A stretch of DNA of 64,000 nt. Origin: Escherichia coli. GTDB lineage: Bacteria > Pseudomonadota > Gammaproteobacteria > Enterobacterales > Enterobacteriaceae. The notes beneath the pieces are model-generated. The model made no database searches, was not told where the DNA came from, and saw nothing but the letters and a program-made list of their open reading frames with translations. Below, piece after piece: positions 9,508-46,752 of this stretch. Both the position numbers and the translations under genes were made by a program. The stretch lies in NCBI RefSeq assembly GCF_024502345.1, contig NZ_JALDNN010000001.1, one strand, 5' to 3'. The number at the start of each line of letters is the position of its first letter. Position 1 is the stretch's first letter.

Positions 9508-9944
9508 GCCGTCACTTCCTCTATCCGGTTGGTATCAGCACGCACATCACTGTGCTCGCCCGTCCGGCAGGTGAGGCAGTAGCGCTCACCGTGGTAATCA
9601 CTGCCGCAGCCGTGACAGTGCCAGTCTGCGTAGAAAACCAGGGGACGGGCTTCCGGTACATAAGACTGCAGTTGCCGGATATGGCGGGTCTCCCTCACCC
9701 CGGGCTTTACATACGGGCAGTGCTGTCGACCGTTCTCCGAAAGCTTTGCTGCATGATGTTCAAACCACGGACGTTCGGTGTCGTATTCAGGATGGTACTG
9801 CAGGGCACTGGCACACAGATGGCAGCTGTAGCGGTCATACGGCGCGGTCTGCGCGGTTATGGCTCCCGTGAGACGGCCGTTGCCGTCCAGAGCCATAAAC
9901 GATTTTGCATACATAGTGGTACTCTCCTTACCGCCAGACGACAC
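9495..9944 (-). CDS. cysteine-rich protein, paralog of 9091..9507 (putative zinc-binding)
   Basis: RPWFEH, WHCHGCGSDYHGERYCLTCRTG; overlaps the downstream paralog by 13 nt. Confidence 0.5.
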   Translation of the reverse strand: MSSGGKESTTMYAKSFMALDGNGRLTGAITAQTAPYDRYSCHLCASALQYHPEYDTERPWFEHHAAKLSENGRQHCPYVKPGVRETRHIRQLQSYVPEARPLVFYADWHCHGCGSDYHGERYCLTCRTGEHSDVRADTNRIEEVTACAC

Positions 9945-14280: not shown

Positions 14281-14371
14281 GGGCTTTGCGCTAAAAACAA
14301 GGTGAGCGGAGGCAGTAATACAGACCAGAAATGACATTCAAAATAATTTCAGACCTATATTACCGGTGTGA

Positions 14372-14404
14372 GAACGGCAGCAGAAGTGCTGCCGTTTTGT
14401 TATT
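14372..14404 (+). terminator. putative rho-independent terminator
   Basis: Stem AACGGCAGC / GCTGCCGTT followed by TTGTTATTT. Confidence 0.5.
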
Positions 14405-14629
14405 TCACTCACGGAGGTTAATGTGTCCAGTAAGAACAAACGGGGTCCCGATACCCTGTTACCGTCGTTATTCCTTCTCCCGGGTCAACTGTCCCACAAA
14501 ATACCCGTGCGTATGCTTCTCGCGCTAAGTCACAGCTATGCTTTCTGTTCCGGTACCCAGGTCTCTCTGATACACGGTCCGCCAGCTCATGAAGGCGGCT
14601 ATTTATTGCCAGTAATAAGGGAGAAAGAA

Positions 14630-14926
14630 ATGCATTGTCCGAATTGCGGTTCGCAAAACATACGACTGCGCCATGTGGGTAAAAAGACGGGTGGGGTCAT
14701 TGGCGCAACAGCCGGAGGCATTGCCGGGCTTGAAGGAGCCTCCACCGGTGCGCTGATAGGTTCAGTCATTCCGGTTGTCGGTACGATAGCCGGAGGCCTC
14801 ATTGGTTTTCTGTCCGGCGCCTGTGCTGGTGCGGTGGCAGGCTCTCTGGCCGGAGAACAACTGGACGGTACCGTCTTTGATGAATACGGCTGCACGCAGT
14901 GCGAGCATATCTTCAGTGCACCGTAA
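14630..14926 (+). CDS. small zinc-ribbon / glycine-zipper membrane protein (98 aa)
   Basis: MHCPNCGSQNIRL… then Gly-rich TM segment (GGIAGLEGASTGALIGSVIPVVGTIAGGLIGFLSGACAGAVAG) and CTQCEH; start chosen at the internal Met with RBS GGGAGAAAG. Confidence 0.5.
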   Translation: MHCPNCGSQNIRLRHVGKKTGGVIGATAGGIAGLEGASTGALIGSVIPVVGTIAGGLIGFLSGACAGAVAGSLAGEQLDGTVFDEYGCTQCEHIFSAP

Positions 14927-15187: not shown

Positions 15188-15916
15188 ATGCAACGACCCG
15201 ATGAAGAGGCCCGCTACGACCGGCTGGCCGTCAGATTGTCGGTCATTATCAGCCGGTTAATGGCCGGAGAAACGCTGACCCTTCAGACACTGTCCGGTGA
15301 GTTTGGTGTATCGATACGCACCCTGCGTCGTGACTTACATCAACGGCTGGTCCACCTCGACATTATCGGGGAGAACGGCACGTATCGGCTCAGTGAGAGC
15401 GCCACGCGTGATCACTCTCCGGGGGCCGTTTCCTTTGCCCGCAGTACCGGTATCGCACGCATTATCCCGTCGCAGAACCGGCAACTGATGCACCTGCTGA
15501 TGAATGAAACGGGCACCTCACCCTGCTTTATCTGGCACGACTTACCGCCAGCATGGACACAGGCTGACAGTTTTCATCGTCTGGCCGAAGCCATTTGTCA
15601 TCACCGGGTGGTCAGTCTGCTGGTCGGCGGTGTCCGTCACGATGAGCAGGAGCCTTACCGCCTGATTTACCGGCATCAGCACTGGTATCTGGTCGTCTGT
15701 TGCCGGGGGAGCCTTCGGGTGTTCCGGCTGGAAGACATTATCTCGGCCTCACTCTCAGAGCAAACCTTCCGTCGCCGGAGCGAAATCAGTTCGCTCATTA
15801 CTGAAGAGGGATTTATCAGCGCACTGCCCCACTTTCGCTTTATCAGTGATGTCATTCACACCTTCAGGGAACAACACCCTGAACATCCATCCAGACCCAA
15901 AGGAGTCAAATCGTGA
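15188..15916 (+). CDS. WYL-domain transcriptional regulator (YfjR-like)
   Basis: N-terminal HTH (GEFGVSIRTLRRDL) and W-Y-L signature (YRHQHWYLVVCCRGSLRVFRLEDI). Confidence 0.7.
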   Translation: MQRPDEEARYDRLAVRLSVIISRLMAGETLTLQTLSGEFGVSIRTLRRDLHQRLVHLDIIGENGTYRLSESATRDHSPGAVSFARSTGIARIIPSQNRQLMHLLMNETGTSPCFIWHDLPPAWTQADSFHRLAEAICHHRVVSLLVGGVRHDEQEPYRLIYRHQHWYLVVCCRGSLRVFRLEDIISASLSEQTFRRRSEISSLITEEGFISALPHFRFISDVIHTFREQHPEHPSRPKGVKS

Positions 15917-16179
15917 AACCTGTCGAAGGCCCTCTGCTGCTCTTCACCCTGATGTTGTCTGCCGTAACCCTGAGCGGCTGTGGCGACAAAAATGAACGCG
16001 AGTTTATCCGGGGATGCAAATCAGGCGGCGGTACTACCGCCGTCTGCGGATGTATCCGGGATGACCTCAAAACGAAATATACGCACGGGGAGCTGGAGAA
16101 AATGAACCAGCAATACGGTTATGTCCCCCCGCGCTTCATGGACAACATGCTGAGCGCTGCTCAGCAGTGCAGAAAATAA
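15913..16179 (+). CDS. putative lipoprotein (88 aa)
   Basis: Signal peptide with lipobox LSGC (…LMLSAVTLSGCGDK…). Confidence 0.6.
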   Translation: MKPVEGPLLLFTLMLSAVTLSGCGDKNEREFIRGCKSGGGTTAVCGCIRDDLKTKYTHGELEKMNQQYGYVPPRFMDNMLSAAQQCRK

Positions 16180-16191
16180 GGAAATCTGAAC

Positions 16192-16503
16192 ATGGCGCTT
16201 GTCATTAAATATTTCGCGATTGCCTTCGCCATCGCGCTTGTGGTCGTGCTGTTTAACGTGTTCGGGAGTACCGGCGAGATACGCAGTTTTGGTCAGGGAA
16301 TGGAATATCTGTTCTGGATGACGCTTGGGCCCGGAGCCGGTATGACGGTCGGTGCTGCTCTTCGACAATGGCTGATGCCGGATGCGGTATACACCCGCGA
16401 AGGAATGACCGGATTACTCAAGGCCCGTCTGTTCTGGCTTGTGGGCCCACAGTATATCGGCTGGCTGGCCGGACTTATCGTCGTGGGTAAACAACTCATG
16501 TAA
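16192..16503 (+). CDS. small inner-membrane protein
   Basis: Two or three hydrophobic helices; operon-like spacing. Confidence 0.5.
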   Translation: MALVIKYFAIAFAIALVVVLFNVFGSTGEIRSFGQGMEYLFWMTLGPGAGMTVGAALRQWLMPDAVYTREGMTGLLKARLFWLVGPQYIGWLAGLIVVGKQLM

Positions 16504-16549
16504 CACGGCTGCCCCCCAACAACATTTTTGACTGAGAAGGAAAAATACC

Positions 16550-17020
16550 ATGCGATTCATGCACGCCATCCTGTCAGCAGGATTACTGACCTTTGCCATC
16601 ACGGCACAGGCGGTCCCCAATATGTGGAGCAGTGGCTTCGGTATGGGCGTCACCGAGTACATCATCACCAGCCCGGAAAACGTGATGATGAACCTGAACT
16701 GCACCGGCAACCCTGACGACCAGAATATCCTGCAGCATCACGTCATGCTCACCCTGCCTGACGGCAGCGGTGCCGATTCACAGGATGAGAAAACCGCCAT
16801 CACCGTCGTCACGGATGACCAGACGTTCCCCCTGCCGTCCTCTCTGGGCTGGCGTAACGGCGACAACGCCTGGCTGTCGTTCATTGATGCCATCAGAAAA
16901 GCAACGTCGTTTGAGATTTACGTCAACGACAAACAGGTGGGGCACTTTACCCCTTCGGCTGGAAACGTTCACAAGGTTCTGGCTGATATGCCCGAATGCA
17001 CGACACTGACCGCCGGGTAA
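16550..17020 (+). CDS. secreted hypothetical protein
   Basis: N-terminal signal peptide (MRFMHAILSAGLLTFAITAQA). Confidence 0.55.
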   Translation: MRFMHAILSAGLLTFAITAQAVPNMWSSGFGMGVTEYIITSPENVMMNLNCTGNPDDQNILQHHVMLTLPDGSGADSQDEKTAITVVTDDQTFPLPSSLGWRNGDNAWLSFIDAIRKATSFEIYVNDKQVGHFTPSAGNVHKVLADMPECTTLTAG

Positions 17021-17068
17021 CCCGGCGCATCCCCGGTTTACAGCAAAATCAATCAAGGACAATACGAT

Positions 17069-17581
17069 ATGACCGACATTTCGACACTCAGCCAGCGACT
17101 GACGACGCCAACCCTGCATTTTGTTCTACTCACCGTCGCCACCTGCGGCATCTGGCCGTTACTGTGGCTGTACCGAAAACAGCAGATTATCAGCGACACC
17201 ACCGGATATCCGGTTTGCGGCAATCTGTTTATCATCTGGCTCGCCGTCTGTTTTGGGCTCGGACGACAGTTCGGCGTGATGGCCTCACCGGACCTGGCGG
17301 GCTACTACACGGGCAGCGATACACTGTTGGCCTTAAGCGGCATTCTGTCGCTCACCTGCGGCGTGATGTACATCGTCTGGGCCTTTAAGGCCAGAGCAGC
17401 ACTGCGACACTATGCGCTGAACACCTTCCGGTTTGACCTGAAGATGAATGCGTTTTATACCGTGGTGCTCAACGTCTTCTACATTACATACTGCATCAAC
17501 GATATGCCGCAGGCACTGGCGAAGCACCGCATTATTCATGGTCAGGCCCCTGTGCCGCCGGAGTCTCCGTCACCGCAGTAA
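17069..17581 (+). CDS. inner-membrane hypothetical protein
   Basis: Multiple TM helices. Confidence 0.55.
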   Translation: MTDISTLSQRLTTPTLHFVLLTVATCGIWPLLWLYRKQQIISDTTGYPVCGNLFIIWLAVCFGLGRQFGVMASPDLAGYYTGSDTLLALSGILSLTCGVMYIVWAFKARAALRHYALNTFRFDLKMNAFYTVVLNVFYITYCINDMPQALAKHRIIHGQAPVPPESPSPQ

Positions 17582-18675: not shown

Positions 18676-21414
18676 TTACTCAGCTTTAGCAAACTGCTGG
18701 GTGAAGTAAGCCAATGAATTAGCTTCTTTTACGGCATCATGCGGAATGAGTAAGTATTTCCAAGGTTTGCCACCGTGCTGTGCAAGGTATTCACTGGCAT
18801 GACTACACCATTTCACACCACTGCGGGCTTTTTCGGTGACTTCCTCATTCCAACTGCCGTCTTGGTTTTGATGTTGAGTACTTTTAGTTTCAATCATCAA
18901 TACATAGTCGGCGGTTTCAGCAACGAAATCCGGCACGTATTCAGGATGCTCGCTACCGCGTTTGTAGTACATCTTGAATTGGCCTTTGGCAGGCTTAAAC
19001 CACTTCTCGCAGTCGCGTTCTAAAATCACCGCAAAACGGCGCTCAGTGTCTGAATCAAACTTTTGCAATGGGTATAGACAACGGCTAAAGCCGCCAAAGA
19101 GCATTTGTTTGATGCGACTGACATCGCGTACTGTATCACGGTAGCTTTGCACCGGCTGGTCTTGCGCTATGGTGTAAGCGCAGTCACGTAAGGTACTAAA
19201 GCCACTGCGTACATCGACGACGTACTCGGTTGCTTCTTCAAAGAAGTGGTTGTTCAGTTGCGCATGAATTAACTTCGCAATCGCATCACTCTGGTTTTGC
19301 AGAATGTTCTCAACCACATCGTCGTCGTTTTCAGCGGCCAGTGTATTGACAGCTTGAGTGGCTAGGTCAAACAAAAGTTCAGCTTGCTCGTCGTAAGGAA
19401 TATCGTCGTAATCGAACAGCTTCTTCAAAATATAGTTTTGTTTCACCGGCTCGTAGTTGCCCGAATCGCCTTCGCCACGAATGGTTTGGTGATTGTCTTG
19501 CAGGCTTTGTTGAATCAGAGTTCGGTCGATAGGTTTTAAACCTTTAATGGCAGCAATGTCCAAATCGAACGGGTGATAGCCGGTACGTACTTCACCTGAT
19601 GGTGAAACAATAATACGCGGAATATCTATGGTGTTATCCACCGTGAGCTGGGTGACTTGCTCAACAATCGCCGCAATATCCACCGATTCTTCAGTAAATA
19701 GCTCCCGTTGCTCTTGGGTTAACTGAGCTTTTACTTGTTCGGTGATCTGTGCTTTTACCTCAGTCGTTAACAATGCTTTGCTGGTCGGCGCATCGGTAGG
19801 GCGTGTTTGATATTGCTTGATCACGTCCAATGCAGCGCGGGCAACGGTTTGTTGGTTAGGCGTGGTATAAGTGGCTTTAGGTTCTTGTACCTCACGGTTA
19901 CCGTCTGCACCGGTTGCGGTTACACCTGAACCAGTCAGTTGCTGCTCTAGGTTCGATTTAACCTGCACACTTTGTTTGGTTACATCGTCTTCTGGGCGAT
20001 CTAATACGCGTGTTTTCAGGCGCAGTGGGTTATTCGGGTCGTTAGCCTCATCAACAATTTCTTGGAATTTGTCGTGCGCAACAATGCTCAGCGTATCGAC
20101 GGCTTCAACACCTGTACGTTTGCCATAAGGTAAACGCAAACCACGGCCAATTGACTGTTCAATTAGGGTTCTGGCGTTGGCTGCACGTAGTGGCACAATG
20201 GTGTACAGGTTAGTAACGTCCCAACCTTCTTTCAGCATGTTAACGTGAATGACGATCTCGGTTGGCTCATCGACATGCTCAACATTGAGCAGTGCTTGAA
20301 TAGTTTCTTCTTCTTTTTTACTGCTATCCACTTGAATGACTTTGCCACGGTAGCGGCCGTCAAACACTGTTTCAAGTTTGGTTAAAAGCTCTGCTGCATG
20401 CGTGGTATCACGGGCAATCACCAACATAAAAGGCTTAACTAACTTAGCATCGTTTTCATGTGCATAAGTGATTAAATCCACCTTGGTTTGCTCATGTAAA
20501 CGAATACCGTCCATTAACTTAATGGTTTCTAGTTCGTCTTTATCATATTGGCTGGCATCAAAGTTACGCTGAGTAACAACGGCAGGCTCTTTAACAAAAC
20601 CATCATCCATGGCACAGGCCAATGGGTAATCAATCACCACATTTTTAAAGTGCACAGGGCCACGACTTGATTCGGTAAATGGTGTGGCCGTTAGCTCTAA
20701 TGCGAATAGTGGATTAAGCTCATTGAGCGCACGCATACCGGCATCGGCACGATAGCGATGCGATTCGTCCATCAGCAGCACTAAGTCAGGTAAGTTCGAT
20801 AGATACTCAAAGTAGCTTTCGCCTAGGGTTTCCGCTAAACGCTTAATACGCGGGGCTTTGCCTCCACGTACTTCGGTGTTAATTTTCGCGATGTTAAACA
20901 CATTGATCCGAACCGAACCAAATAGATCGCCCATGACTTGTGCGCCGCGGCTCTCATAGTTATCACCGGTGATCACTTCTGGCGGTGCTAGCACAAAATC
21001 GGTAATGCCTTTAAACACGTACTTCGGTGAGGCGGGCGAGAAATCGCTGATCAGCTTTTCATAAATAGTCAGGTTAGGTGCCAACACAAAATAATTGCGA
21101 ATGCCATGTACCTGATACAAATAGGTAATAAACGCCCCCATCAAACGGGTTTTACCTACACCTGTTGCCAAGGCAAAACACAGTGAAGGAAAGTCACGTT
21201 CAAAATCGCTGAGCTTAGGAAACTGCGCTTTTAAGGTTTCTAATAGCTCCGGCACATCGCGTTTTGGGTTCAGTAGTTTGTGCTCAGAAGCACTAATCGC
21301 CACTGCCAACGCACGCAGCGAATCTTGCTGCGGCTGGCGTAAGCTTAAACGGCCAATAATATTATTAATGGCACGTAATTGGTCGGGTTTTAAGCTTGAT
21401 AAATCCATGGTCAT
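18676..21414 (-). CDS. Type III restriction enzyme Res subunit (SF2 helicase + PD-ExK endonuclease)
   Basis: Helicase motifs I ATGVGKT, II DESH, VI QSIGRGLR; C-terminal PD…ETK (YVPDFVAETADYVLMIETK); directly downstream of the Mod gene. Confidence 0.85.
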   Translation of the reverse strand: MTMDLSSLKPDQLRAINNIIGRLSLRQPQQDSLRALAVAISASEHKLLNPKRDVPELLETLKAQFPKLSDFERDFPSLCFALATGVGKTRLMGAFITYLYQVHGIRNYFVLAPNLTIYEKLISDFSPASPKYVFKGITDFVLAPPEVITGDNYESRGAQVMGDLFGSVRINVFNIAKINTEVRGGKAPRIKRLAETLGESYFEYLSNLPDLVLLMDESHRYRADAGMRALNELNPLFALELTATPFTESSRGPVHFKNVVIDYPLACAMDDGFVKEPAVVTQRNFDASQYDKDELETIKLMDGIRLHEQTKVDLITYAHENDAKLVKPFMLVIARDTTHAAELLTKLETVFDGRYRGKVIQVDSSKKEEETIQALLNVEHVDEPTEIVIHVNMLKEGWDVTNLYTIVPLRAANARTLIEQSIGRGLRLPYGKRTGVEAVDTLSIVAHDKFQEIVDEANDPNNPLRLKTRVLDRPEDDVTKQSVQVKSNLEQQLTGSGVTATGADGNREVQEPKATYTTPNQQTVARAALDVIKQYQTRPTDAPTSKALLTTEVKAQITEQVKAQLTQEQRELFTEESVDIAAIVEQVTQLTVDNTIDIPRIIVSPSGEVRTGYHPFDLDIAAIKGLKPIDRTLIQQSLQDNHQTIRGEGDSGNYEPVKQNYILKKLFDYDDIPYDEQAELLFDLATQAVNTLAAENDDDVVENILQNQSDAIAKLIHAQLNNHFFEEATEYVVDVRSGFSTLRDCAYTIAQDQPVQSYRDTVRDVSRIKQMLFGGFSRCLYPLQKFDSDTERRFAVILERDCEKWFKPAKGQFKMYYKRGSEHPEYVPDFVAETADYVLMIETKSTQHQNQDGSWNEEVTEKARSGVKWCSHASEYLAQHGGKPWKYLLIPHDAVKEANSLAYFTQQFAKAE

Positions 21415-21435
21415 TATAATTATCCTTATTAACCG

Positions 21436-23142
21436 TTAATCTTGCGCTGCATCGTCATCGGCAGACGCATCGTCAGTTAGGTTTGCCACGTTTAACGAAT
21501 AATCGTCCTGACCAAATTGGCACTTGTCTAAAATGGCTTTTGGCAGTTTTTTCAAGGTTAAATTGGTAAAACGACCTGGCTCGCAGCGAAATGCACCACA
21601 CATAACCAGTAAAGTTCGGTCACTGCCAACTTCTTCTGACAGCGCTTCTAATTTATCTACCGATAAGCTTTGTGTGGTGACATAAATATGATCCGTCTCG
21701 GTTGAATAACCGTGATCCCACCAATTCACTTCCGATGGCGCATAGGTAAAACCTTCCAGCTTACAAACGGCTTCGGCGAGCATTTCTGGGTTGTACTCTT
21801 TATTGATCACTTCCAAGCCAAACTTATCTTTCACAATTAAGGTCGGGGCAAGTTTGTAATAGCGGAAGCCACCGCCACCTTGCCAGTTTACAGACTTAGA
21901 AATACCACCTTGATCTTCGCCATCAATCACTTTTTGCAAGCGCGGGATAATATGGGTATGACAATGATCACCTAGCTCGACCGAGATCCAACGTCTTTTC
22001 ATCTTGTGAGCTACAGCAGCAGTAGTTCCCGAACCACCGAATGAATCAAAGACTAAATCGCCTTCTCGCGTACACATTTCGAAAATCCGCTTCAAAAGCG
22101 CTTCGGGTTTTTTTCCATTTTTGAAACTAACGCCGCCTTCATTTGCTATTCCATTCCAACTAATGTCAGTCCAAACATCAGTTATTAGTTCAGCAGGTTG
22201 CATCTCACCGTCAATTTCCAAAAGCCTATTGGAGTAAAAGACCATTTGCCTACCATTTGCGATATAAAAGCCTTCGACATCCTCATTTGGATGTACATAA
22301 ACCTTATCCCTATCTTTCTTTGACTTCTCGATAGTTTCTTTTCTCTTTATTTTAGCACCACCACCAATTGCAACGGATTGAAATACACGTTCTGCATTAT
22401 CAATTGCGAATTGTGCTAATTCATCATCAAATGTATCAGGCAGTTTTTTCTTGGCTTCTTTTGTATCTTTATAGCCATTGGCCTTTGCAAACGCATCGGC
22501 AATACCGCACCACGTCCAACTTTTATAATGGTCATCTGGGTTTAATAGATATTTGTTATATCCCGTATCATATCCTTTAGGTATATAGATTTTGTTAAGC
22601 GGTTTCTGGGTGCGATCTTTTGCGTATACAAGCAAAAAGTTTACTGTGGAGAAAACTGTGGCCCCTGTTGCCTTAAAGCCTGAAGGGTCATTTGTGGTCA
22701 TCGATATGGTATTTAACTGATTTGCACGACCAAAAATCTCGTCCATCAAAACTTTTAAATAAGCCATTTCGCAGTCATCTAAGTGAACGAATATTACTCC
22801 ATCATCACTTAGTAGATTACGAATTATTTCTAACCTATCCCTCATTAAGCCCAGCCAAATGGAATGCTCCAGACCATCATCATAGTGCTCAAAAGCACTT
22901 CCGGTATTGAATGGTGGGTCTATGTAAACACACTTCACTTTGCCTGCATATTCTTGCTCTAGCGCCTTCAATGCCAATAAGTTATCGCCAAAAATCAGTT
23001 TATTATCAAAAATATCGTTTTCGGTCACTTTTTGGCTGGCGTGATAAGACTTGCTCGGGTCTTCTAACAAAATGCGCGGCTCTAACTTTTTGCGCTCGTT
23101 TTTGCCTATCCAGGTCAGTTCTAATTTGGTTTTGCTCATCAT
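21436..23142 (-). CDS. Type III R-M Mod subunit (N6-adenine/N4-cytosine class DNA methyltransferase)
   Basis: Motif IV DPPFN and SAM motif FDSFGGSGTT; mod-res gene order with a 21-bp gap. Confidence 0.85.
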   Translation of the reverse strand: MMSKTKLELTWIGKNERKKLEPRILLEDPSKSYHASQKVTENDIFDNKLIFGDNLLALKALEQEYAGKVKCVYIDPPFNTGSAFEHYDDGLEHSIWLGLMRDRLEIIRNLLSDDGVIFVHLDDCEMAYLKVLMDEIFGRANQLNTISMTTNDPSGFKATGATVFSTVNFLLVYAKDRTQKPLNKIYIPKGYDTGYNKYLLNPDDHYKSWTWCGIADAFAKANGYKDTKEAKKKLPDTFDDELAQFAIDNAERVFQSVAIGGGAKIKRKETIEKSKKDRDKVYVHPNEDVEGFYIANGRQMVFYSNRLLEIDGEMQPAELITDVWTDISWNGIANEGGVSFKNGKKPEALLKRIFEMCTREGDLVFDSFGGSGTTAAVAHKMKRRWISVELGDHCHTHIIPRLQKVIDGEDQGGISKSVNWQGGGGFRYYKLAPTLIVKDKFGLEVINKEYNPEMLAEAVCKLEGFTYAPSEVNWWDHGYSTETDHIYVTTQSLSVDKLEALSEEVGSDRTLLVMCGAFRCEPGRFTNLTLKKLPKAILDKCQFGQDDYSLNVANLTDDASADDDAAQD

Positions 23143-23196
23143 TTCTGTGCTCTTATCTTGTGTTCGTTACTTAGCGTTATTATTCTACAGCAATCG

Positions 23197-25062
23197 CTAC
23201 GCAGGTTGTGCTTGGCGATTACTCGCTTGGGTGTTTTGCCCTTGTCGGCGTTGCGCTTGCTCGGCTAAGTAACTGAATAAATTCTGGTTGTGTGGGTCGT
23301 TCGCTTGAAGGCGTTCTTGTTTTGCTACAACTGCCGGGCTTTCTGCCAAGTTTAAATGGCTAATCCACACCGTTTGCATTAAACGTGCGGTATCGCCCAA
23401 GCGTTTGAAGTATGCGTGCGGCGCACTGCCTAATACTAATGCCGTAAAACTATCAAAAAATTGCTGACGAAGTTCATCAAAAGCGTGGCTGATTAATCTT
23501 TTAAATGCCGCTTGCTCGGTAATCTCAGGAGCCGTAATAGCGCCTTCAAACTGCGCCATTAATAGCGTGGTTATGCAGTAAGTAAAATGTCGATATACCA
23601 GTTTTTCTGGGCTTGGACTACTGCGCTCTGCGTTTGTACATAAGACTTGAATAGCCAGATAGCAGTTCACCGCGTTAATGGCGACGGCCCCCTGTAAATC
23701 TGTACTAAAAACGGCTTGGTACTCGGCACTTTCTTGGTTAGTGAATTTGCTTGGCTCTACTTTTAGCTGATAAGGCACGCGTACATCACCGTGCATACAG
23801 GCCAATGCTTTGGCCAAGGTGTCGATAGTAATGCTGCGAATACCCGCTGCTGCGCTTTGTTGTGGGCGGTAGAGATATTCAACACCAAACATTTTCATCT
23901 CTTGGCGCAAGCGTTCTTGGGTATCATCCAGCGCGGCAAAGTTGGCTAAATCGACCGGGTTTTGCAGGTTACGCGCTTTGGTTACTTGTTTGTGAAATGC
24001 ATCGTTACCCGTGTTGATAATGGTTACCATCACTTGAGCTTGGCTGATGTCTGCATTTGGGTTTTCACGCATAAACTGTGCAGCACTAGCAATGGTTTGT
24101 GCACCGTTAACGACGGACAGGCCATCGACTGCAACATGCTTGCTACCTGTGTGGCCTCTAATATTCCCTTTTGGTTTTACTGCATTGCCAACCAGAGTAA
24201 TGCCATTGTTAAGATAAATAAAATTTTCCGGCTCATGTAAAAGGGTGTCTTTAATCGCCCTATTTACCCCACGTCTGCCAGCACCAATAAAATAGCGAAT
24301 ATTTTTCTCGTAAAGTTTACGGTCATGAGTAGTGTGCAAGGCAATTAAATCGGTTAGCTTGGCGATACCAAATACGACTTTTCGTGGTTGTTCTTGCACT
24401 CGGAACTTATATACAGCGACACGCTCGTTTACCGTATCAACCGCATGTTCACTGCGAAGAGCCTGCTCAACATCGGTGGCGGTGTATTCTTGATATTCAG
24501 GTGCGATTTGCTCTTCACCTTCATCAATCAGCTCTTGGATCGCTGGTTGTAGGTAGTTTTGTGCTTGTATGGTAATGCCATTACCTGTGTATGCGACAAG
24601 CAGTTGAATTCTTTCGCACTCGTCTAATGCGGCTTCAATATTTGCTTGAAGGTTTTGAACATTTTGATTAAAGCGGTGAAATTGCTTGTTTAAAAGTAAC
24701 TTTACACCCTCAATAAAAGCCTGTGCTTCGCCCAATTGGAATTGCGCATCTTCCTTCATTTTTGACTGTACTAAGTACAGAGTCTGATCAGCTTCGTGAT
24801 AATAAATTGCATCAATACCATGGTCTTCATAGTCGTCCACCACAGCTTTTGCTGCGGTCACTACGTCTAAATCGAATTTTTGCTGTAGTACGAATGCGCT
24901 AAAAGCCCTGGAAATTTGCTTTTTAGGTTTATCTTCTCGCCCACCTTGCCCAAGCAATGGCGGTAAATGCGGCACAAAACGCTGCTGTAGCAGTTCTTTT
25001 AATAGGGTAAGAAATTGTGGTTGTAATGCTGCCAAGTGAGTTGTCCTTATTTTTATTGCCAA
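23197..25062 (-). CDS. large abortive-infection-like protein, tentatively AIPR family (621 aa)
   Basis: Size and context (between an Abi_2 gene and an RM system) and a remembered VVNGAQT-like block; family assignment from memory only. Start overlaps the upstream stop by 10 nt. Confidence 0.4.
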
Positions 25063-25994
25063 ATTGGCCGCGCTTGCCAGTCGGCTGGAAAGCCCATGCG
25101 GTCAATGTCTATTTGGTGATGATTTATCAATTGGATGAGTCGTTGCTTCCAGTGATGTTCACCACTGATCACATCCATGAGGTAGCCCAACATCACCAAG
25201 GTGTTATAAATTTTTCGTAAACGCCGGTCGCTATCGGGCAGGTTTTGCAAGCTTTGAATCAGTGCCGGTTCACCATGGCGTGGCAGTACCGTGGTTTTAA
25301 TAAAATCACGGTTCCATAGCCTAGAATGATGGGCACTTAAATTGCGCACTAGCGACAAATGCTCACAGAATGAGGTAAGAGTTTTTTCATCTAGGCCGTA
25401 GCTTTTGCTTATTACCTGGCGGTCGGCACGCAGCTTGATATTGCTGTACCAACAGGAAAGTTGCCCCATGGTTAACAGCTCAACACAGGCCCAAATAGGG
25501 GGTAGTGGCTCTTGATATTTTTGCGTAAGGTGCTTGATGAACTCTTCACGACTGCACTTTACCTCACCCGTGAGTTTGCCAAGGCTACTGGCGTATTCTA
25601 ATAAATCACCAAAGAGCTCTGGTTTTAAATGAGGGTGCGCGGTTTGGTATTTTTGGCTCAACTGATACGCAATTTGTGTGCGTAATGACACCTCAAAACG
25701 CTCGATGGCATCTAGCACTAACAAACGTAGTTCACGGTCGAAAACATATAGGCTTAGGACTTGGTCAAACTGAGTACCTGTGATAAACGTATGACTGGCA
25801 TGATCTTGCTCATAGGGCAAACAATAAGCCGCAAAACGATAGTAGTTCAGCTGTGCTAAGTAAAACTCAGCTTTCGGGACATCACTGATCACTAGGCCAC
25901 GTTGTTGCAACAAGCGTACTTGATCGCTAAAGCTTGTAGGGGGCTTGGTAAAAGCGACTTTAGGGACTGGTTTGCGGCTCATTTGACCTCCCAT
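25053..25994 (-). CDS. Abi_2-family (AbiD/AbiF-like) abortive infection protein
   Basis: 313 aa with N-terminal …[17 protein letters not shown]… signature, which I recall as typical of Abi_2 proteins. Confidence 0.55.
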
Positions 25995-26139
25995 GCAACA
26001 GAAGATCGAATTTTGCGGGCCCCAGAAACGAGTAACCCCTCACAGGGCGCTGATCTGACGGGTAGCGGGAGGGGTGTTGTTGCAGTGATCATAGCCCCAA
26101 ACTGAAAAAAGTCAATGCTGGCGTTGAAATTGATTGTCA

Positions 26140-29034
26140 TCATTGAACCGTCCACCCAATGGTAAATAGGGTCTCTTGGCTGGTTTTTTTATTCAGTTTG
26201 CCTTCTAAGCTTTCAATCAGCTGTTCGCGCTTTTCGTCCACTTCATCTTGTTTATCAAACAGTTCACGGCGGCTTTTATTGCGCTGACTTTCTAACTGGC
26301 GCTGCTGTTTTTGCAGGGCAAGTTTCTCTTCCAGGGTTGGAGCTATTTTGGCTTCGCGGCGTACTTGCTTGATTTGCTTATCAAGCTCTTTTATAGATTG
26401 TTCAAGCCCTTCTTTTAAATCGTCTGCCCAAGAATCTAACTTGTTTACCTCTTGCTCGAAGAAGCTGAGATTACGATCGTTAACTTGCTTTTCGATGCCT
26501 AGTCTCGACTGCTGTAACGCATGCTGCAGCGCATATTGATAGCCAGGATATAAGGCGGCAAGTTCTTGCTCACTTACTTCACTTTGCACACAGGCACTAA
26601 GCTGCATCAGCTTTTGCACGACTTCACTTGGTAGCGGATGACCATGTTCATCTTGCGCGGCGAACAATAAATGGTCTTCGCTACGCTCCAATGATTCGAC
26701 ACTAAATTTTTGTAGGCTTAGTACACCTGACAAACCCACTAAGGGTTCTAGCATACTGATTTTTGTTTGGTGGTTGCTGTAATCAAAAATTACGCTGGCA
26801 ATGGGTAATTCACGTTGAAGCGCGTTGCTGATCACCCATTCACCCAGCGGGTGGGTGATACGATACACATGGGCATTGGCTAGTTTACCGGTTTCAATAC
26901 TGCCGCTTTGCTGTCCTCGGCGTACAAGTTGGTAGCTACCTGTAGGAGCCTGATTGATACTTTGATTAAGCGTAAAACTATGGTTGCTTGGGTCAATGTC
27001 TGCGATAGCTGCAAGTTCATGCGTACTGAGTTGCCAGAACCAACGGCCTACTTTATCGAGGCGTTGCTGCGCGGCATCTAGCTGAATTTTGAGTAAGTCG
27101 TGAATATCTTCATCGAAATTTTCCAGCAGCAGTTGCTGGGTCTCGCGCATTTTTTGGTTGATGTCGGCTTCTAGCTCTTTTTGCAATTGATCAAAAGCTG
27201 CTTCTATTTCCGCCGGTTGCCGACAAGTCTCGTATATATTTTGGATGCGTTTTTCAAAATCAATACCAGATTCAATGCTGCCTAGCACATCGTCCGATGC
27301 ACCAAACACGCCATCGAACAGATGGAATTTTTCAGTCAGTAACTCTAAAACACGCTGATCGGCTTTGTTGGCTTCGTTGAGGAAGTTGATCACCACAACA
27401 TCAAATTGCTGCCCATAGCGGTGACAACGGCCAATACGTTGCTCTACTCGTTGTGGGTTCCATGGTAAGTCATAGTTAATAAGTAACGAACAGAACTGTA
27501 AGTTAACCCCTTCTGCAGCCGCTTCGGTTGCGATCATAACTTCGGCATGATGGCGGAAGTAATCAATTAGGGCAGTACGGCGGTCAATTTGCGGTGAACC
27601 ACTCACCTTATCACTACCTTGGTTTTCAGCTAACCACTGCTGATAAACTTTGGTTGCTTCTGGATGGTTATTGCTGCCACTAAAGGTGACTAATTTATCA
27701 GCAAAGCCATTCGCCTCGAGGAAACGAGCTAGGTATTCTTGCGTGCGCTTCGATTCGGTAAAAATAATGACTTTACGTGGCGCCCCCATTTCCTCCATTT
27801 TGGCAAACCCTTGATTAAGCGCCGTTAGCAAGGCTTGGGTTTTACTGTCGGTGGTAATGGATTTAGCCTGCTCGATATAATGCTCAAGCTCGGCTATTTC
27901 AGCATTGAGTAACTCAAAGTCAATATCACTCTCAGGGGTATTGCTTTGTGTTTCTTCTACATACTCGCTGTACTCTTCTCCTAAATCATCACTCTCAACA
28001 AGCTCACTGATAATATCGAGGTCCGATTTAGCCTGTACTTTCAAGTCAACCAATCGGCGCTTTATAGTTTCGAGTGTGTTGAGCACTGCGTGCGAACTAG
28101 ATGCTAATAGCTTTCTCAGTATAAGGCCGGTTAAATGACGTTGGCTCTTGGGTAGTGCATAGCTCTCGTCCTTTTCCAATAAGGCACTAATACTTTCGTA
28201 AAGTGCCATCTCAGCATTAGAGGGTGTAAACGGTACGGTGAGTGTTTGACGTTGGGTATAGCGGACGTATTCGAGTACATCTTTGCGCAAGGTACGCTGA
28301 ATAAACCCGGTAAGTCGTTTCTTTAAATGCCCTAGCGCACTTTCGTTATTGACAAAGTGTTGTTTGAAGCTTCGCTCATCGCCGAAGATTTGATCGTCGA
28401 TAATGGTTGAAAGTCCATACAATTCCATGAGCGAGTTTTGTAAGGGTGTTGCAGTAAGTAATAGCTTTTTACTGCCATCTAATGCGCGGCGTAGCGTTTG
28501 ACCCATTTTATTGCTGCTACGATGTGCATTACGTAGCTTGTGCGCTTCGTCGATGACGACAATATCCCATGGCTCTAGCATTAGCTGCGTTTCCATTCTC
28601 GCAGCATAGTGATAGGACATAATAGAAACGCAGTGATTAGCTAGCGGGTTAGTTTGACCATTGTTAACACTAATGCGCCACGTTTTTGCATCAAGCACTT
28701 GCGTTGGTAAATTAAACTTATCGCCCAATTCCTGCGCCCACTGGCGTCGCAATGACGCCGGGCAGATGATCAATATGCGGCGTTTACGCTCTGCCCAATA
28801 CTGTGACAGTACTAAGCCTGCTTCAATAGTTTTCCCTAAGCCCACTTCATCAGCGAGTACAACACCTTTGCTTAACGGGTTGTTGAGCGCAAAAAGTGCC
28901 GCATGAATTTGGTGCGGATTGAGATCAACACTGGCATCAAAAAGAGATTGAGACAATTTATCAACGCCATTTTCAGCGTGGCGAATGGTTAATTCCTGCG
29001 CAAAGTATTTTGCTTGATAATCAGTTATTACCAT
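26140..29034 (-). CDS. SNF2-family helicase (about 965 aa) with C-terminal coiled-coil-rich region
   Basis: Motifs I LADEVGLGKT, II VIDEAHKLRN, III LLLTATPLQN, VI QRIGRCHRYGQ. Start set at MVITDYQ (29034) so that overlap with the upstream HTH gene is 14 nt rather than 95. Confidence 0.85.
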   Translation of the reverse strand: MVITDYQAKYFAQELTIRHAENGVDKLSQSLFDASVDLNPHQIHAALFALNNPLSKGVVLADEVGLGKTIEAGLVLSQYWAERKRRILIICPASLRRQWAQELGDKFNLPTQVLDAKTWRISVNNGQTNPLANHCVSIMSYHYAARMETQLMLEPWDIVVIDEAHKLRNAHRSSNKMGQTLRRALDGSKKLLLTATPLQNSLMELYGLSTIIDDQIFGDERSFKQHFVNNESALGHLKKRLTGFIQRTLRKDVLEYVRYTQRQTLTVPFTPSNAEMALYESISALLEKDESYALPKSQRHLTGLILRKLLASSSHAVLNTLETIKRRLVDLKVQAKSDLDIISELVESDDLGEEYSEYVEETQSNTPESDIDFELLNAEIAELEHYIEQAKSITTDSKTQALLTALNQGFAKMEEMGAPRKVIIFTESKRTQEYLARFLEANGFADKLVTFSGSNNHPEATKVYQQWLAENQGSDKVSGSPQIDRRTALIDYFRHHAEVMIATEAAAEGVNLQFCSLLINYDLPWNPQRVEQRIGRCHRYGQQFDVVVINFLNEANKADQRVLELLTEKFHLFDGVFGASDDVLGSIESGIDFEKRIQNIYETCRQPAEIEAAFDQLQKELEADINQKMRETQQLLLENFDEDIHDLLKIQLDAAQQRLDKVGRWFWQLSTHELAAIADIDPSNHSFTLNQSINQAPTGSYQLVRRGQQSGSIETGKLANAHVYRITHPLGEWVISNALQRELPIASVIFDYSNHQTKISMLEPLVGLSGVLSLQKFSVESLERSEDHLLFAAQDEHGHPLPSEVVQKLMQLSACVQSEVSEQELAALYPGYQYALQHALQQSRLGIEKQVNDRNLSFFEQEVNKLDSWADDLKEGLEQSIKELDKQIKQVRREAKIAPTLEEKLALQKQQRQLESQRNKSRRELFDKQDEVDEKREQLIESLEGKLNKKTSQETLFTIGWTVQ

Positions 29035-29227
29035 CCAACACCCCTTTTCCTTGAGCTGCTTGCGTACTGATCCATTCTTCAAGATCGGATTGTTTAAAGC
29101 GCCAAGCATTGCCAACTTTAAAAGCAGGAATTTTATGTACCGCTGCTAGACGGTAAACAGTTCTCTCATTTACCTTCAAATACTCAGCTACTTCTTTAAT
29201 TGTCAGAACGGTATCAGTCATTTTCAC
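29021..29227 (-). CDS. small helix-turn-helix DNA-binding protein (excisionase/MerR-like HTH)
   Basis: LTIKEVAEYLKVNERTVYRLAAVHKIPAFKVGNAWRFKQSDLEEWI is a typical HTH_17-type pattern; overlaps the SNF2 start. Confidence 0.7.
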   Translation of the reverse strand: MKMTDTVLTIKEVAEYLKVNERTVYRLAAVHKIPAFKVGNAWRFKQSDLEEWISTQAAQGKGVLDGNN

Positions 29228-40615: not shown

Positions 40616-41503
40616 TTGTTAACTTCCTTGCATATTCGATTTCCATGTGATAGTGAAAATCACCAGAAGAGAATGCGATTGAGGCGTAATCAGATGAAAC
40701 AATATGAAGATGGTTATAACGTGAATGGATATAGCTGGGAAAATGAAACAATTGAGTATTTGTTGAATGATAAACAACTGACAGATAATCACATACCTGA
40801 ATGGGTTAAAAAAAATGAAATTGCAGCATTCTGGTTCTGGTTAGTTATAATTAACACAGATCCCAAACTCCTTGGGGTTCGTAATGAATTAGGGTTCAAT
40901 ACAGCCATGATGGGGCTGATTCCTGCGGGGAGTATACCCATAACAACAATTCCTTCAGATCATGAAATGAGACTGGATGTTATAAGCAAATGGATTAATG
41001 CATTAATCCTTGACAATCAATCAGATTGGTTCATCTCAACAATGCATCAAAACTGGCTGCAGATCGAAAAGAGAAACGAAGCCAAATGGCTTAAAAAGAA
41101 TACAGAACAACTCGAATGGGCATGGAAATATATCAATGCACGCATCCCGCACACGTATCTTTCCTGGTTTTATCCTGTAAGTGATAACGAAAGATACATT
41201 GCTATCGTAGTTTTACTAAAAATTTTATTCCCCGCAGATACACCATACTTACAGCAGCCAAAAGTACTTCACTATGGGGTTGCCGCAAAAGAAAAATTTT
41301 TCGACAAGATGCACAATGCATTCCGAAAACAGTTTACCGACGGAAAAAAAGATAAGCGGGTACAAATCAACGTTAAAATATCATCAGATGCAAAACGTAC
41401 TCTGGACAGACTGACCAGAGAACTGAAAACAACACAACAGGCTGTCCTGGAACATCTGATTCAGAACCACAGGCTGGTGATTCAGAACCACAGACTGGAT
41501 TAA
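40616..41503 (+). CDS. hypothetical protein (295 aa), paralog of 13312..14280; follows a 1.6-kb repeat-rich non-coding region
   Basis: Shared FW.W block; C-terminal basic segment (…KRVQINVKISSDAKRTLDRLTREL…) may be DNA-binding. Confidence 0.55.
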   Translation: MLTSLHIRFPCDSENHQKRMRLRRNQMKQYEDGYNVNGYSWENETIEYLLNDKQLTDNHIPEWVKKNEIAAFWFWLVIINTDPKLLGVRNELGFNTAMMGLIPAGSIPITTIPSDHEMRLDVISKWINALILDNQSDWFISTMHQNWLQIEKRNEAKWLKKNTEQLEWAWKYINARIPHTYLSWFYPVSDNERYIAIVVLLKILFPADTPYLQQPKVLHYGVAAKEKFFDKMHNAFRKQFTDGKKDKRVQINVKISSDAKRTLDRLTRELKTTQQAVLEHLIQNHRLVIQNHRLD

Positions 41504-42447
41504 CTTTCACCACTTCTGCTCCTGGCGATTTTCTTCTTTTGGTAGTGTCTCCTGGCTGCGGATATCAGATACTTTTCCGTCATTTTGTTGCAGAACTCTT
41601 CAATGTAGTTAATCATTTTCTGGTGTGCTTTCAGCTTTTCTTCCCCGGGGGACGCTTTCAGATAAATGTCCTCCTTTTCCACAAGCGCATTGACAAACTC
41701 CCCTAAACATCCCTGGTTATAAAGCGACGTGAAAAACAACACATCCCCCAGTCTCTCCAGTAACTGTGGTTTATCCCCGAAATGTTTTTTTATACTTTCA
41801 AAAGGTTTTCTATTTTCCGGATCAAAAAAAACACTTAATCCCAGTCGCTTATATTCCTGGTAAAAAAGTTCAAACGTCGGGGATGCTGAACGGCAAATAA
41901 ACGAAGACTGCGCCCATGGATTAAAATCTGTGACACGCCTCCCCTCCCGCACTTCCTGTCGTGTCAGCGGTGGTTCAGCAAACCAGGCGTCCAGCTCAGC
42001 CGAATCGTTATCCCTGCTCAAAACCTCATACAAACTGCCCGTGAACGGTTGAGCCGTTTGTTTTGTTGCTTCGCCTTCTGATTGTCTGAATCCATCCACT
42101 TTTCTCCGGATATTACGCGGAATCAGCATAAAAGGCGGGACATTAAGTGATAAACGTTTACCCGTCATGCGATACCATTGACCTACCTCAACCTTAATCC
42201 GTGTATCTGACCTTAGCTCAAGTGCCATTATGCTAAGCAGGTACAGATAACGCACCGTATAACGATTAAAATGTTTCTCCGGATCAAACGATTCGGACCG
42301 TTCTCCTCTGTACACGACTCTGCTGCGCTTCAGTATTCGCAGAGTATATTTCCAGGCCGGACTTTTACAAATGGCGGTAACTCTGGCCTTATTAACAATG
42401 TCGCGTAATGCATCAATCTGTTGTGCAGTCATCTCTTCCCTCCACAC
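41500..42447 (-). CDS. hypothetical protein (315 aa)
   Basis: Complete ORF convergent with the upstream gene; no confident family. Confidence 0.45.
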   Translation of the reverse strand: MWREEMTAQQIDALRDIVNKARVTAICKSPAWKYTLRILKRSRVVYRGERSESFDPEKHFNRYTVRYLYLLSIMALELRSDTRIKVEVGQWYRMTGKRLSLNVPPFMLIPRNIRRKVDGFRQSEGEATKQTAQPFTGSLYEVLSRDNDSAELDAWFAEPPLTRQEVREGRRVTDFNPWAQSSFICRSASPTFELFYQEYKRLGLSVFFDPENRKPFESIKKHFGDKPQLLERLGDVLFFTSLYNQGCLGEFVNALVEKEDIYLKASPGEEKLKAHQKMINYIEEFCNKMTEKYLISAARRHYQKKKIARSRSGES

Positions 42448-42538
42448 TTTGCCACTCCAGATTTTTTCACGCCCATATTACCTGAATGATAAACCGGATT
42501 AGTGTGATCCGGTTCAGTGAAATCAACAGGATACCGGT

Positions 42539-43423: not shown

Positions 43424-43541
43424 ACGCCCCGGAGTCCCCCGTGGCAACCGTATACCTTTACACGACAACGGATTACGGTAACCACTGCCGTATACCGTCT
43501 GTCATTATCAATAACACGCTCTTTAATTTCAGAGGTCAGTC

Positions 43542-44219: not shown

Positions 44220-44224
44220 CCGGT

Positions 44225-44458
44225 ATGTCGGACTGCCACCCTGTTTTATTGCCCGAAGGCCCTTTCTCACGCGAACAGGCGATGGCTGTCACAACAGCTT
44301 ACCACAATGTGCTTATTGAAGATGATCAGGGAACGCATTTCCGGCTGGTTATCCGCAATGCTGAAGGGCAGCTACGCTGGCGGTGCTGGAATTTTGAACC
44401 TGATGCCGGAAAACAGCTAAATCCGTATCTCGCCAGTGAGGGAATTCTCAGGCAATAA
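44225..44458 (+). CDS. DUF905-family protein (YkfF-like)
   Basis: …[38 protein letters not shown]… ; paralog of 17941..18174. Confidence 0.8.
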
Positions 44459-44480
44459 ACGTCTTCATTTCATCCATCAG

Positions 44481-44512
44481 GCCACGTCTTCTCCGGGAGA
44501 CGTGGCTTTTTC
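44481..44512 (+). terminator. putative rho-independent terminator
   Basis: Stem GCCACGTCT / AGACGTGGC followed by TTTTT. Confidence 0.6.
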
Positions 44513-44556
44513 ATTTATTACACCAGTAAATCTTAATCACCAATAAGGAGCAAATC

Positions 44557-46734: not shown

Positions 46735-46752
46735 GTCAGAAAGGGGATTCTG

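Follow-up and report, generated by a model that had tools for sequence, protein, structure and literature searches.

A gene on the plus strand of a 64,000-nucleotide stretch of Escherichia coli DNA (contig NZ_JALDNN010000001.1; this whole stretch is called the window below, and positions are counted from its first letter) encodes a protein of 98 amino acids (aa) that, judged from its sequence, consists of a split Cys4 zinc ribbon and a glycine-zipper hydrophobic hairpin, an architecture that is conserved across a large family. This family is unnamed and uncharacterised, and its split-ribbon membrane-hairpin design has not been described previously. Its genes ride on integrative islands of the integrase/AlpA/YagK-YfjJ type and on large conjugative plasmids. 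The gene is backbone-like and is usually the first gene of the rightward operon of the island; it is not a phage gene, nor is it part of a recognisable toxin-antitoxin (TA) or defence pair.

Architecture and family of the 98-aa protein

The product of the open reading frame (ORF) at 14630-14926 is MHCPNCGSQNIRLRHVGKKTGGVIGATAGGIAGLEGASTGALIGSVIPVVGTIAGGLIGFLSGACAGAVAGSLAGEQLDGTVFDEYGCTQCEHIFSAP. Annotated coding sequences (CDS) that are 100% identical to the gene are present in E. coli and plasmid records, and the RefSeq record for the 98-aa form (WP_009652512.1) carries the name 'membrane protein' or 'glycine zipper family protein'. When the window was compared with four homologous loci (two from Yokenella, one from Hafnia and one from Superficieibacter), the substitutions per site in the 98-codon core amounted to 0.097, 0.085 and 0.378 at codon positions 1, 2 and 3, respectively. 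The ORF is a real gene under purifying selection. An initial annotation of this DNA had described a 98-aa protein with CPNC and CTQC pairs and a Gly-rich hydrophobic segment of GxxxG repeats, provided with its own ribosome-binding site (RBS). The protein is confirmed by the ORF, the motifs and the conservation within the family, and the RBS corresponds to a Shine-Dalgarno (SD) sequence 6 nt before the ATG (Table 1). An antisense ORF (14599..14895) was considered as well and rejected as a shadow ORF, as it lacks the conserved Cys motifs, and RBS and Cys motifs are found only in the plus frame. Because this ORF has its wobble positions in common with the plus frame, the codon-position test is unable to discriminate between them; Gly-rich genes usually cast a Pro/Ala shadow of this kind.

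The two CxxC pairs lie at the two ends of the chain and, given their four cysteines (C3, C6, C88 and C91), would be able to coordinate one zinc. The first knuckle, CPNC, gave sub-threshold matches to the Zn_ribbon_PaaD, TFIIB, NrdR and IS1/IS1595 Zn models. The second, CTQC, sits in the conserved motif LDxxVFDEYxCxxCxHxF, and residues 85-96 partially match Zn_ribbon_8 / FmdB. Between the knuckles, twelve GxxxG motifs start at residues 17, 21, 25, 29, 36 and 40 and at residues 51, 55, 59, 63, 67 and 71, and the composition of residues 20-75 is 30% Gly and 64% Gly, Ala, Ser and Thr taken together. The first of the two predicted helices is preceded by the basic residues R12, R14, K18 and K19. The second is the most hydrophobic stretch of the protein, with glycines (G51, G55, G63, G67, G71 and G75) that are invariant or nearly so, and gave sub-threshold matches to Gly-zipper_Omp, YMGG and Rick_17kDa_Anti. 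The Kyte-Doolittle (KD) hydropathy of 19-residue windows exceeds 1.6 for all starts at residues 39-57, with a maximum of 1.98; in the family the median is 1.76, and 83% of the members reach at least 1.6. The net charge in the family is +2.5 in the N-flank, about 0 in the loop between the helices and about -2.0 in the C-flank.

The model calculated with AlphaFold2 (AF2) has the layout strand/helix/helix/strand/strand, in which the predicted local distance difference test (pLDDT) score is about 70-82 at the two termini only: about 80 over residues 1-10, and about 70 for the strands at 85-88 and 94-96. Helix 17-43 is of low confidence, and the mean pLDDT was about 56 with both the 10-sequence and the 136-sequence alignment. 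A Foldseek search of the PDB with this model yielded no match better than E = 6.9. Since the four invariant cysteines occupy opposite ends of the chain, both ends should face the same, reducing compartment. The simplest model that we infer is an inner-membrane helical hairpin with an N-in/C-in topology, the cytoplasmic ends of which are stapled together by one Cys4 zinc ribbon. Some family members are longer (P0070 and P0086, e.g. from Burkholderia pseudomallei; homologous proteins are labelled P and homologous loci L) and have an extra N-terminal transmembrane helix, after which come KRR and a long linker that leads to the first knuckle; the KRR after the added helix would place the knuckle of these forms in the cytoplasm. 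No signal peptide or lipobox was found in the 98-aa sequence, which begins with MHCPNCGSQN, and the suggestion that the homologs might be periplasmic structural proteins, raised in the initial annotation as a possible objection, found no backing there.

A profile (A1) built from the close homologs and one distant homolog was run against 1.84 billion representative proteins and matched 930 of them at E<=1e-3, 324 at E<=1e-10 and 4 at E<=1e-30, nearly all over their full length; the family thus comprises 930 clusters at 50% identity. One plan is shared throughout the 152 domain matches that were inspected: a CPxC is followed by basic residues ((G)RK), by two glycine-zipper helices that a GP/P turn joins, and by the acidic motif (L/I)Dxx(V/I)(L/F)(D/N)(N/E)YxCxxCxHxF. 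In the alignment of 136 sequences C3, C6, C88, C91, G29, G71, G75 and D79 are invariant. The window protein has all the characteristics of the family, being a split zinc ribbon with an inserted zipper hairpin (CPxC, basic residues, two zipper helices around a Pro-containing turn, and LDxxV(L/F)D(N/E)YxCxxCxHxF), about 95-110 aa in length and encoded on a mobile element.

None of the Pfam, NCBIfam and PADLOC models covers the module, and those of Pfam and NCBIfam yield only sub-threshold half-domain or compositional matches. Partial hidden Markov model (HMM) matches were obtained to Gly-zipper models for 52 of the 136 family members (PF13488 at E<=0.01 likewise in 52/136) and to Zn-ribbon models for 45. 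A sequence profile search of the PDB gave no relative (best match: HypA, E = 0.67), and in PADLOC-DB v2 the 98-aa protein matched no defence family; only the neighbouring regulator matches WYL models. The source records name the homologs 'hypothetical protein' or, wrongly, 'TraT' and 'DUF1610 RNA-binding'. The latter label (HVO_2753 / former DUF1610, the JGI name for P0006 and P0021) was rejected, as the window protein does not match PF07754 / NF041909 and weak matches to these models occur in only 5/136 and 2/136 of the family members, respectively. Matches to PHROG families are restricted to the Gly-rich part (phrog_16692 at 6e-10; phrog_1047, a tail-associated lysin, at 7e-8; and phrog_23574 and phrog_794, tape-measure proteins), where they fall on hydrophobic stretches of tail and tape-measure proteins. 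No full-length homolog is present in 50,697 phage records and IMG/VR contains a single locus, so that a phage origin was rejected. Full-text searches of the literature (glycine zipper, zinc ribbon, WYL, DUF932, CP4-57/yfjR, leading-region anti-defence) retrieved no description of the family.

Start codon and leader region

The frame of the 98-aa protein is open in the 5' direction up to GTG 14423, which results in an ORF of 167 aa. This form (167-169 aa) is the choice of many automatic gene callers and has been predicted for seven homologs; moreover, the GTG is preceded by a strong and invariant GGAGG. The substitutions in the extension are spread over the codon positions as 0.31/0.26/0.26 (without a third-position bias), as against 0.10/0.09/0.38 in the core. 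As a result of single-base indels at the junction, the register between the leader ORF and the main ORF differs among strains, and all three possibilities occur: the frame runs into the main ORF in the window and in L004, it is closed by a TAA 16 nt ahead of the ATG in L003 and L005, it overlaps the main ORF out of frame in L006, and other frames are used in P0006 and P0020. The start codon of the distant homologs is found 2-5 residues ahead of the first Cys, and an extension by 4 residues is the commonest one for the longest ORF (29/80) in a metagenomic set of 80 loci of the largest subfamily. Taken together, the lack of codon bias in the extension, the frame-shifting junction indels and the starts of the distant homologs argue that the 98-aa protein is the selected product and that the 167-aa ORF results from the chance fusion of a leader ORF to it. 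Ribosomes initiating at GTG 14423 would then incidentally yield a 167-aa fusion in the window allele. The SD sequence of the 98-aa gene has counterparts in L003-L006 (AGGGAG/AGGAGAG) and in L007, L014 and L016 (AAGGA/AAGGAG). Decayed alleles are frequent in the close homologs (P0010, P0012, P0014-P0016, P0018, P0022 and L003).

The homology between the enterobacterial loci starts around position 14338, at ACATTCAAAA, in two different upstream contexts, and the divergence in the region 14340-14422 is only 0.03-0.11 per site. Within this conserved leader module a first hairpin forms a strong terminator-like element about 230 nt 5' of the ATG. The leader frame is open for at least 63 codons in 5/5 loci; the probability of such an open frame is 0.07-0.17 from base composition, and 0.16-0.20 per lineage when the observed divergence is taken into account. 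The sequence of the leader peptide as such is not constrained, and the leader ORF occurs only in the enterobacterial clade. A second hairpin, terminator- or attenuator-like, is situated about 30 nt before the main start and has 7-9 bp in the homologs. RNAalifold assigned 7 pairs to it, 5 of which show compensatory changes (window, L003-L007, L014 and L016), and it has been kept in L007, L014 and L016, where the proteins are 49-57% identical to that of the window. The initial annotation had the gene follow a terminator; this requires some qualification, as the strong hairpin is about 230 nt away and the one close by is weaker.

The leader RNA folds better than its shuffled controls (z = -1.96). 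A pairing that would sequester the SD sequence was predicted by a repeat search and RNAalifold, between a pyrimidine tract in the leader, TTCCTTCTCCC (14471-81), and GGGAGAAAGAA (14619-29). We infer that expression in the enterobacterial clade is restrained and probably coupled to translation; in our analysis the leader resembles a translation-coupled attenuator or a hok/mok-like arrangement. Rfam yielded no leader family and no antisense RNA in the region. Elsewhere in E. coli the leader was encountered only in the same three genomes that carry the gene (see below), and its interpretation as a regulatory module shared with other islands was consequently rejected.

Islands and plasmids that carry the gene

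The gene in the window sits in a CP4-57-like island. On the minus strand upstream of it the island contains genes for DUF2913, YagK/YfjJ, two zinc-ribbon paralogs, AlpA and an inovirus-Gp2-like protein. The order on the plus strand is: a 322-aa protein without assigned function, the 98-aa gene, a helix-turn-helix (HTH)-WYL regulator, four small envelope proteins, DUF905, DUF932, antirestriction, RadC and YeeU/CbtA. The same gene order is kept in the loci of Yokenella, Hafnia and Superficieibacter. The locus is found with 100% identity in 3 of 5,426 complete E. coli genomes and on 16 large plasmids, most of them conjugative and chiefly from Klebsiella; pKPN1481-1, the only one inspected, has been typed IncFIB/IncHI1B.

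The association with DUF932 extends over distant subfamilies. Homologs at 34-57% identity directly adjoin DUF932 in six other contexts, in either order, with genes for PD-(D/E)XK, YqaJ, a Gp3-like recombination directionality factor (RDF) or RadC nearby. DUF932 is encoded immediately downstream and on the same strand in 56 of the 62 metagenomic loci with enough downstream sequence, typically after a gap of about 125 nt, and the recurrent order in this set is Integrase+ YagK/YfjJ- AlpA- [98-aa-type gene] DUF932+ YqaJ+ Gp3-like RDF+ RadC+. The homolog lies beside a P4-type integrase in L014, L015, L016 and L018, and one homolog was found in a Salmonella island together with integrase, methylase, DUF3987 and AlpA. 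No conserved antitoxin or defence partner was found beside the genes of the family. The WYL regulator was examined as a dedicated partner and rejected: L003 and L008-L018 do not have it, and L007 has no more than a truncated HTH. In the window this regulator (15188-15916) is about 52% identical to its counterpart in L004-L006, whereas the flanking genes are 80-97% identical, which suggests that it has been exchanged or is fast-evolving. A check of the homolog neighbourhoods, as proposed in the initial annotation, thus did not reveal a toxin or stress setting; the genes were found instead in the early rightward operon of AlpA/integrase-type islands, beside DUF932.

Several other features of the window were recorded (Table 1). 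The WYL gene is followed (15913-17581) by the genes of the four predicted envelope proteins, i.e. an 88-aa lipoprotein-like, a 103-aa membrane and a 156-aa secreted protein and DUF4234. A 44%-identical DUF4234 homolog occurs in L015 (3211-3756), 1.3 kb downstream of a distant glycine-zipper homolog in an otherwise different context. DUF932 is truncated in the window and intact at the same position in L001, L002 and L004-L006; beyond the truncated gene a defence block (18676-29115) is located on the minus strand, which is absent in L001 and L002, where DUF932 is intact. A second, diverged copy of a CP4-57-like island (30260-48233) does not contain a homolog of the 98-aa gene. This copy comprises YagK/YfjJ-like, AlpA and inovirus-Gp2-like genes, a distant relative of the 322-aa gene, a GTPase (42539-43423), DUF905, DUF932 (44557-45375), antirestriction, RadC, YeeU and CbtA. 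The two adjacent paralogous genes annotated as 'putative zinc ribbon protein' (9094-9914, minus strand) encode proteins of 138 and 139 aa with about 33% mutual identity. An Rfam match to a group II intron (RF00029, 64.9 bits; 1910-1996, minus strand) lies beside a 507-aa ORF (2000-3523, minus strand). Finally, L007 (CACSKA010000002.1, labelled Chryseobacterium sp. 18061) combines a P4-like integrase, DUF2913, a 57%-identical homolog and the same upstream hairpin. Such an enterobacterial-type island is odd in the Bacteroidota and may reflect a contaminated or mislabelled assembly, or horizontal acquisition.

Table 1. Positions of the 98-aa gene, its predicted protein segments, its leader and the truncated DUF932 gene with the adjacent defence block in the window
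Feature	Position	Strand	Basis or remark
Leader hairpin 1	14371-14398	+	terminator scan; perfect 10-bp inverted repeat 14373-82 / 14387-96, then TTTTGTTATTT
SD sequence of leader ORF, GGAGG	14413-14417	+	invariant; 5 nt before GTG 14423, in invariant block TTATTTCACTCACGGAGGTTAA
Leader ORF, 69 codons from GTG 14423	14423-14629	+	fused in frame to main ORF in the window allele
Leader hairpin 2, CCGCC 14579-14583 / GGCGG 14594-14598	14579-14607	+	terminator- or attenuator-like; followed by T-rich TATTTATT
SD sequence of 98-aa gene, AGGGAG	14618-14623	+	6 nt 5' of ATG 14630
CDS of 98-aa zinc-ribbon / glycine-zipper protein	ATG 14630 to TAA 14926 (stop 14924-14926)	+	ORF list, codon-position bias, annotated identical CDS, family
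Predicted N-terminal zinc knuckle CPNC, residues 3-6	14636-14647	+	C3, C6 invariant, P4 at least 90% (136 sequences)
Predicted glycine-zipper helix 1, residues ~17-44	14678-14761	+	GxxxG, hydropathy, AF2; G17/21/25/29, G36/40/44; conserved E35
Uncharged short turn SVIPVV with conserved Pro48	14762-14779	+	P48 at least 90% (136 sequences); family loop charge ~0
Predicted glycine-zipper helix 2, residues 51-75	14780-14854	+	hydropathy, conservation; Gly 51/55/59/63/67/71/75
Predicted C-terminal zinc knuckle CTQC, residues 88-91	14891-14902	+	D79, C88, C91 invariant; F95 at least 90% (136 sequences)
DUF932 remnant, first 85 residues	18278-18532	+	truncated in the window; intact at same position in L001, L002, L004-L006
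ResIII helicase, Type III restriction	18676-21414	-	
N6/N4 methylase	21436-23142	-	
AIPR	23197-25062	-	
Abi_2	25053-25994	-	
SNF2-family helicase	26140-29115	-	

Possible functions and relation to known systems

We tentatively favour, at somewhat less than even confidence, the view that the protein is a zinc-clamped glycine-zipper hairpin of the inner membrane, which would oligomerise and perturb the membrane when the early operon of the island is switched on. The N- and C-terminal CxxC knuckles would come together on the cytoplasmic side as a single Cys4 zinc ribbon, and this ribbon would staple both ends of the hairpin, leaving only a tiny turn in the periplasm. The long in-register zippers would drive homo-oligomerisation into a ring or pore-like assembly. 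Upon derepression of the operon this assembly would perturb or permeabilise the cytoplasmic membrane, and it would act as a 'kil'-like or membrane-effector function together with DUF932. In the enterobacterial clade the structured leader (5' hairpin, leader ORF, hairpin 2 and anti-SD pairing) would hold expression down, and translation of the leader by ribosomes would be needed to open the main RBS and to allow read-through. Insertion into membranes and their permeabilisation by glycine zippers have been reported, e.g. for the type VI secretion system effector Tde1 (PMC10240207).

Several observations weigh against this proposal. The zipper region of the AF2 model is of low confidence (mean pLDDT 56), and helix 1, with its low hydrophobicity (KD 0.8-1.2) and a conserved Glu, makes full insertion into the membrane uncertain. 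A lethal pore-former at the head of a conserved operon and without an identified immunity partner would be unusual. With respect to the leader, the covariation for the long-range helices comes from only 5 related sequences, and hairpin 2 measures only 5 bp in the window allele. No sigma-70 consensus promoter passed the scan; a weak candidate (ATGACA-19 nt-TATATT, 14331-14361) was read by eye, outside the scan result. A terminator-like hairpin within 100 nt upstream is present in only 14/72 loci of the beta-proteobacterial-type subfamily, against 5.8% of random windows, and the claim of a terminator is therefore restricted to the enterobacterial relatives.

A non-toxic role is conceivable but rather unlikely, in which the protein is a membrane anchor whose cytoplasmic zinc ribbon docks DUF932, or YqaJ, RDF or RadC, during excision, transfer or establishment. 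Even in distant subfamilies the gene is tightly adjacent to DUF932, with the same orientation and in either order, which would fit such a role, as would the overlap between the stop codon of RadC and the start of the glycine-zipper gene in L021 and L022. The gene furthermore behaves as island backbone rather than as variable cargo and has no evident immunity or antitoxin partner. Yet DUF932 is lacking within 5 kb in L007, L008-L010 and L014-L018, the second island in the window has DUF932 but not the 98-aa gene, and DUF932 is truncated in the window although the 98-aa gene is intact. The seven in-register glycines of helix 2, which are extremely conserved, suggest helix packing or oligomerisation beyond mere anchoring. 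The split ribbon might alternatively be a regulatory clamp, sensitive to zinc or to the thiol redox state, on a glycine-zipper channel. The gene and DUF932 would then make up a hitherto unrecognised two-gene membrane module that opens the early operon of a very common class of integrase/AlpA/YagK-YfjJ islands and controls the state of the host membrane or DNA traffic during induction, transfer or establishment, with the translation-coupled attenuator as its switch in enterobacteria; we regard this as unlikely.

The PHROG matches of the zipper region to tape-measure and tail-protein segments could point to an exclusion or immunity protein, which would block phage or conjugative DNA at the inner membrane, perhaps by intercalating with the zipper segments of those proteins. 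Moron or exclusion genes typically occupy such a position as the homologs have in L014, L016 and L018, at the integrase-side edge of the island, and antirestriction genes as well as a Type III restriction-modification (RM) / Abi block are nearby. Since these matches are confined to a low-complexity part they may be compositional; PADLOC gave no match, the family is essentially absent from phages, and it is not obvious what a cytoplasmic zinc ribbon would contribute to exclusion. Such a function is decidedly unlikely.

The initial annotation likened the protein to small membrane-active toxins or stress proteins. This label is supported in part: its membrane component agrees with the flank charges and the hydropathy of a membrane hairpin, and membrane activity or toxicity is plausible, but no mark of a TA, stress or defence gene was found. 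A stand-alone small membrane toxin of the type I kind, controlled by RNA, or a stress-induced membrane protein would be small and hydrophobic, as is the window protein, and the structured 5' leader, the upstream ORF that overlaps or runs into the main ORF and the predicted sequestration of the SD sequence recall hok/mok control. The frequency of decayed alleles and the CbtA/YeeU TA pair in the same type of island could be taken in the same sense. Known type I toxins, however, differ clearly in size and design from a protein of 98 aa with two helices and a putative zinc site. Neither a promoter nor a terminator for an antisense RNA was detected, and Rfam gave no family (an undescribed small RNA would escape); a conserved adjacent protein antitoxin is lacking, and the neighbours vary (WYL, CI-like repressor, PD-(D/E)XK nuclease or DUF932). 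The leader ORF does not extend beyond one clade, and the gene is borne by islands rather than belonging to a core stress regulon. We consider a toxin or stress function of this kind very doubtful.

It is still less probable that the protein is soluble or peripheral, with a Gly/Ala/Ser-rich middle part that is flexible or self-associating, e.g. in fibrils or condensates. The poor hydrophobicity of helix 1 and its Glu35 would allow for this, as would an AF2 confidence below 50 in the middle region and the 17% of the family that never reach a KD of 1.6. Helix 2, in contrast, is above this threshold over about 35 residues, the charges obey the positive-inside rule around an uncharged turn, and the glycines recur in register as they do in membrane glycine-zipper hairpins (cf. 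the sub-threshold matches to Rick_17kDa_Anti and Gly-zipper_Omp); the RefSeq name 'membrane protein' also speaks for the membrane. A true product of 167 aa with its start at GTG 14423 is highly improbable in view of the substitution pattern, the junction indels, the starts of the distant homologs and the RefSeq annotation.

CP4-57-like islands, related integrative elements and mega-plasmids are very common in the Enterobacterales and Burkholderiales, and backbone genes of the islands such as DUF932, DUF905 and RadC are still without a known function. The present family adds at least 930 clusters (at 50% identity) for which there is no Pfam or NCBIfam model and in which one zinc site would be formed from both ends of a membrane hairpin. 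If the favoured proposal of a membrane-active hairpin is correct, the family offers a way to study the effects of these islands on the host upon induction or recent acquisition, and mis-annotations that keep recurring (the labels 'TraT' and 'DUF1610 RNA-binding protein' as well as the 167-aa start) would be corrected. Should the protein turn out to be a passive anchor, it would extend the catalogue of small membrane proteins only modestly.

Among the known systems, the Gly-zipper clan of Pfam (PF05433, PF13488 and PF13441; e.g. SlyB/Pcp) has in common with the window protein two Gly/Ala-rich helices with GxxxG motifs and a short turn, a weak but membrane-compatible hydrophobicity, a weak HMM similarity and an expected self-association. 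The scores of the window protein remain below the gathering thresholds (16.6 vs 25, 15.8 vs 24.2 and 14.9 vs 28.9 bits). Unlike the outer-membrane lipoproteins of the SlyB/Pcp/17-kDa antigen type it has no lipoprotein signal or lipobox, and unlike the clan as a whole its hairpin is flanked by two CxxC knuckles, with a predicted cytoplasmic origin and insertion into the inner membrane. The annotation as TraT (PF05818, a lipoprotein of about 240 aa) is wrong: the likeness is limited to a Gly-rich stretch (residues 22-80 vs profile positions 78-132; E = 0.19, 11.9 vs 31 bits), and the window protein is without a lipobox, has less than half the length and has unrelated termini.

Hok/Mok and TisB are type I toxins, and they and other mobile-element membrane toxins or 'kil' functions resemble the window protein in a structured leader, an upstream ORF and a predicted occlusion of the SD sequence. 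The window protein is about twice as long as type I toxins and differs from them in its two helices, its putative zinc site and its conserved operon with DUF932. The characteristics of that class (fewer than about 60 aa, a single transmembrane helix and an antisense RNA) were not found, and no antisense RNA was detected in the region. The small size, the location on a mobile element and the zipper or hydrophobic core are shared with these toxins and with glycine-zipper effectors such as Tde1 (PMC10240207).

The Cys4 zinc ribbons (FmdB / Zn_ribbon_8 PF09723, TIGR02605; TFIIS/TFIIB; IS1/IS1595) are alike in having two CPxC/CxxC knuckles, and the three-stranded sheet that AF2 predicts from the termini of the window protein is similar to their beta-hairpin knuckles. 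These ribbons are contiguous and span about 30-45 residues, whereas that of the window protein would be split by a zipper of about 80 residues, its knuckles being 81 residues apart; the zinc-ribbon models align with half-sites only, below threshold (16 vs 34.4 and 14.3 vs 31.3 bits). The finding combines known kinds, the glycine-zipper small membrane proteins and the zinc ribbons, in a single small protein.

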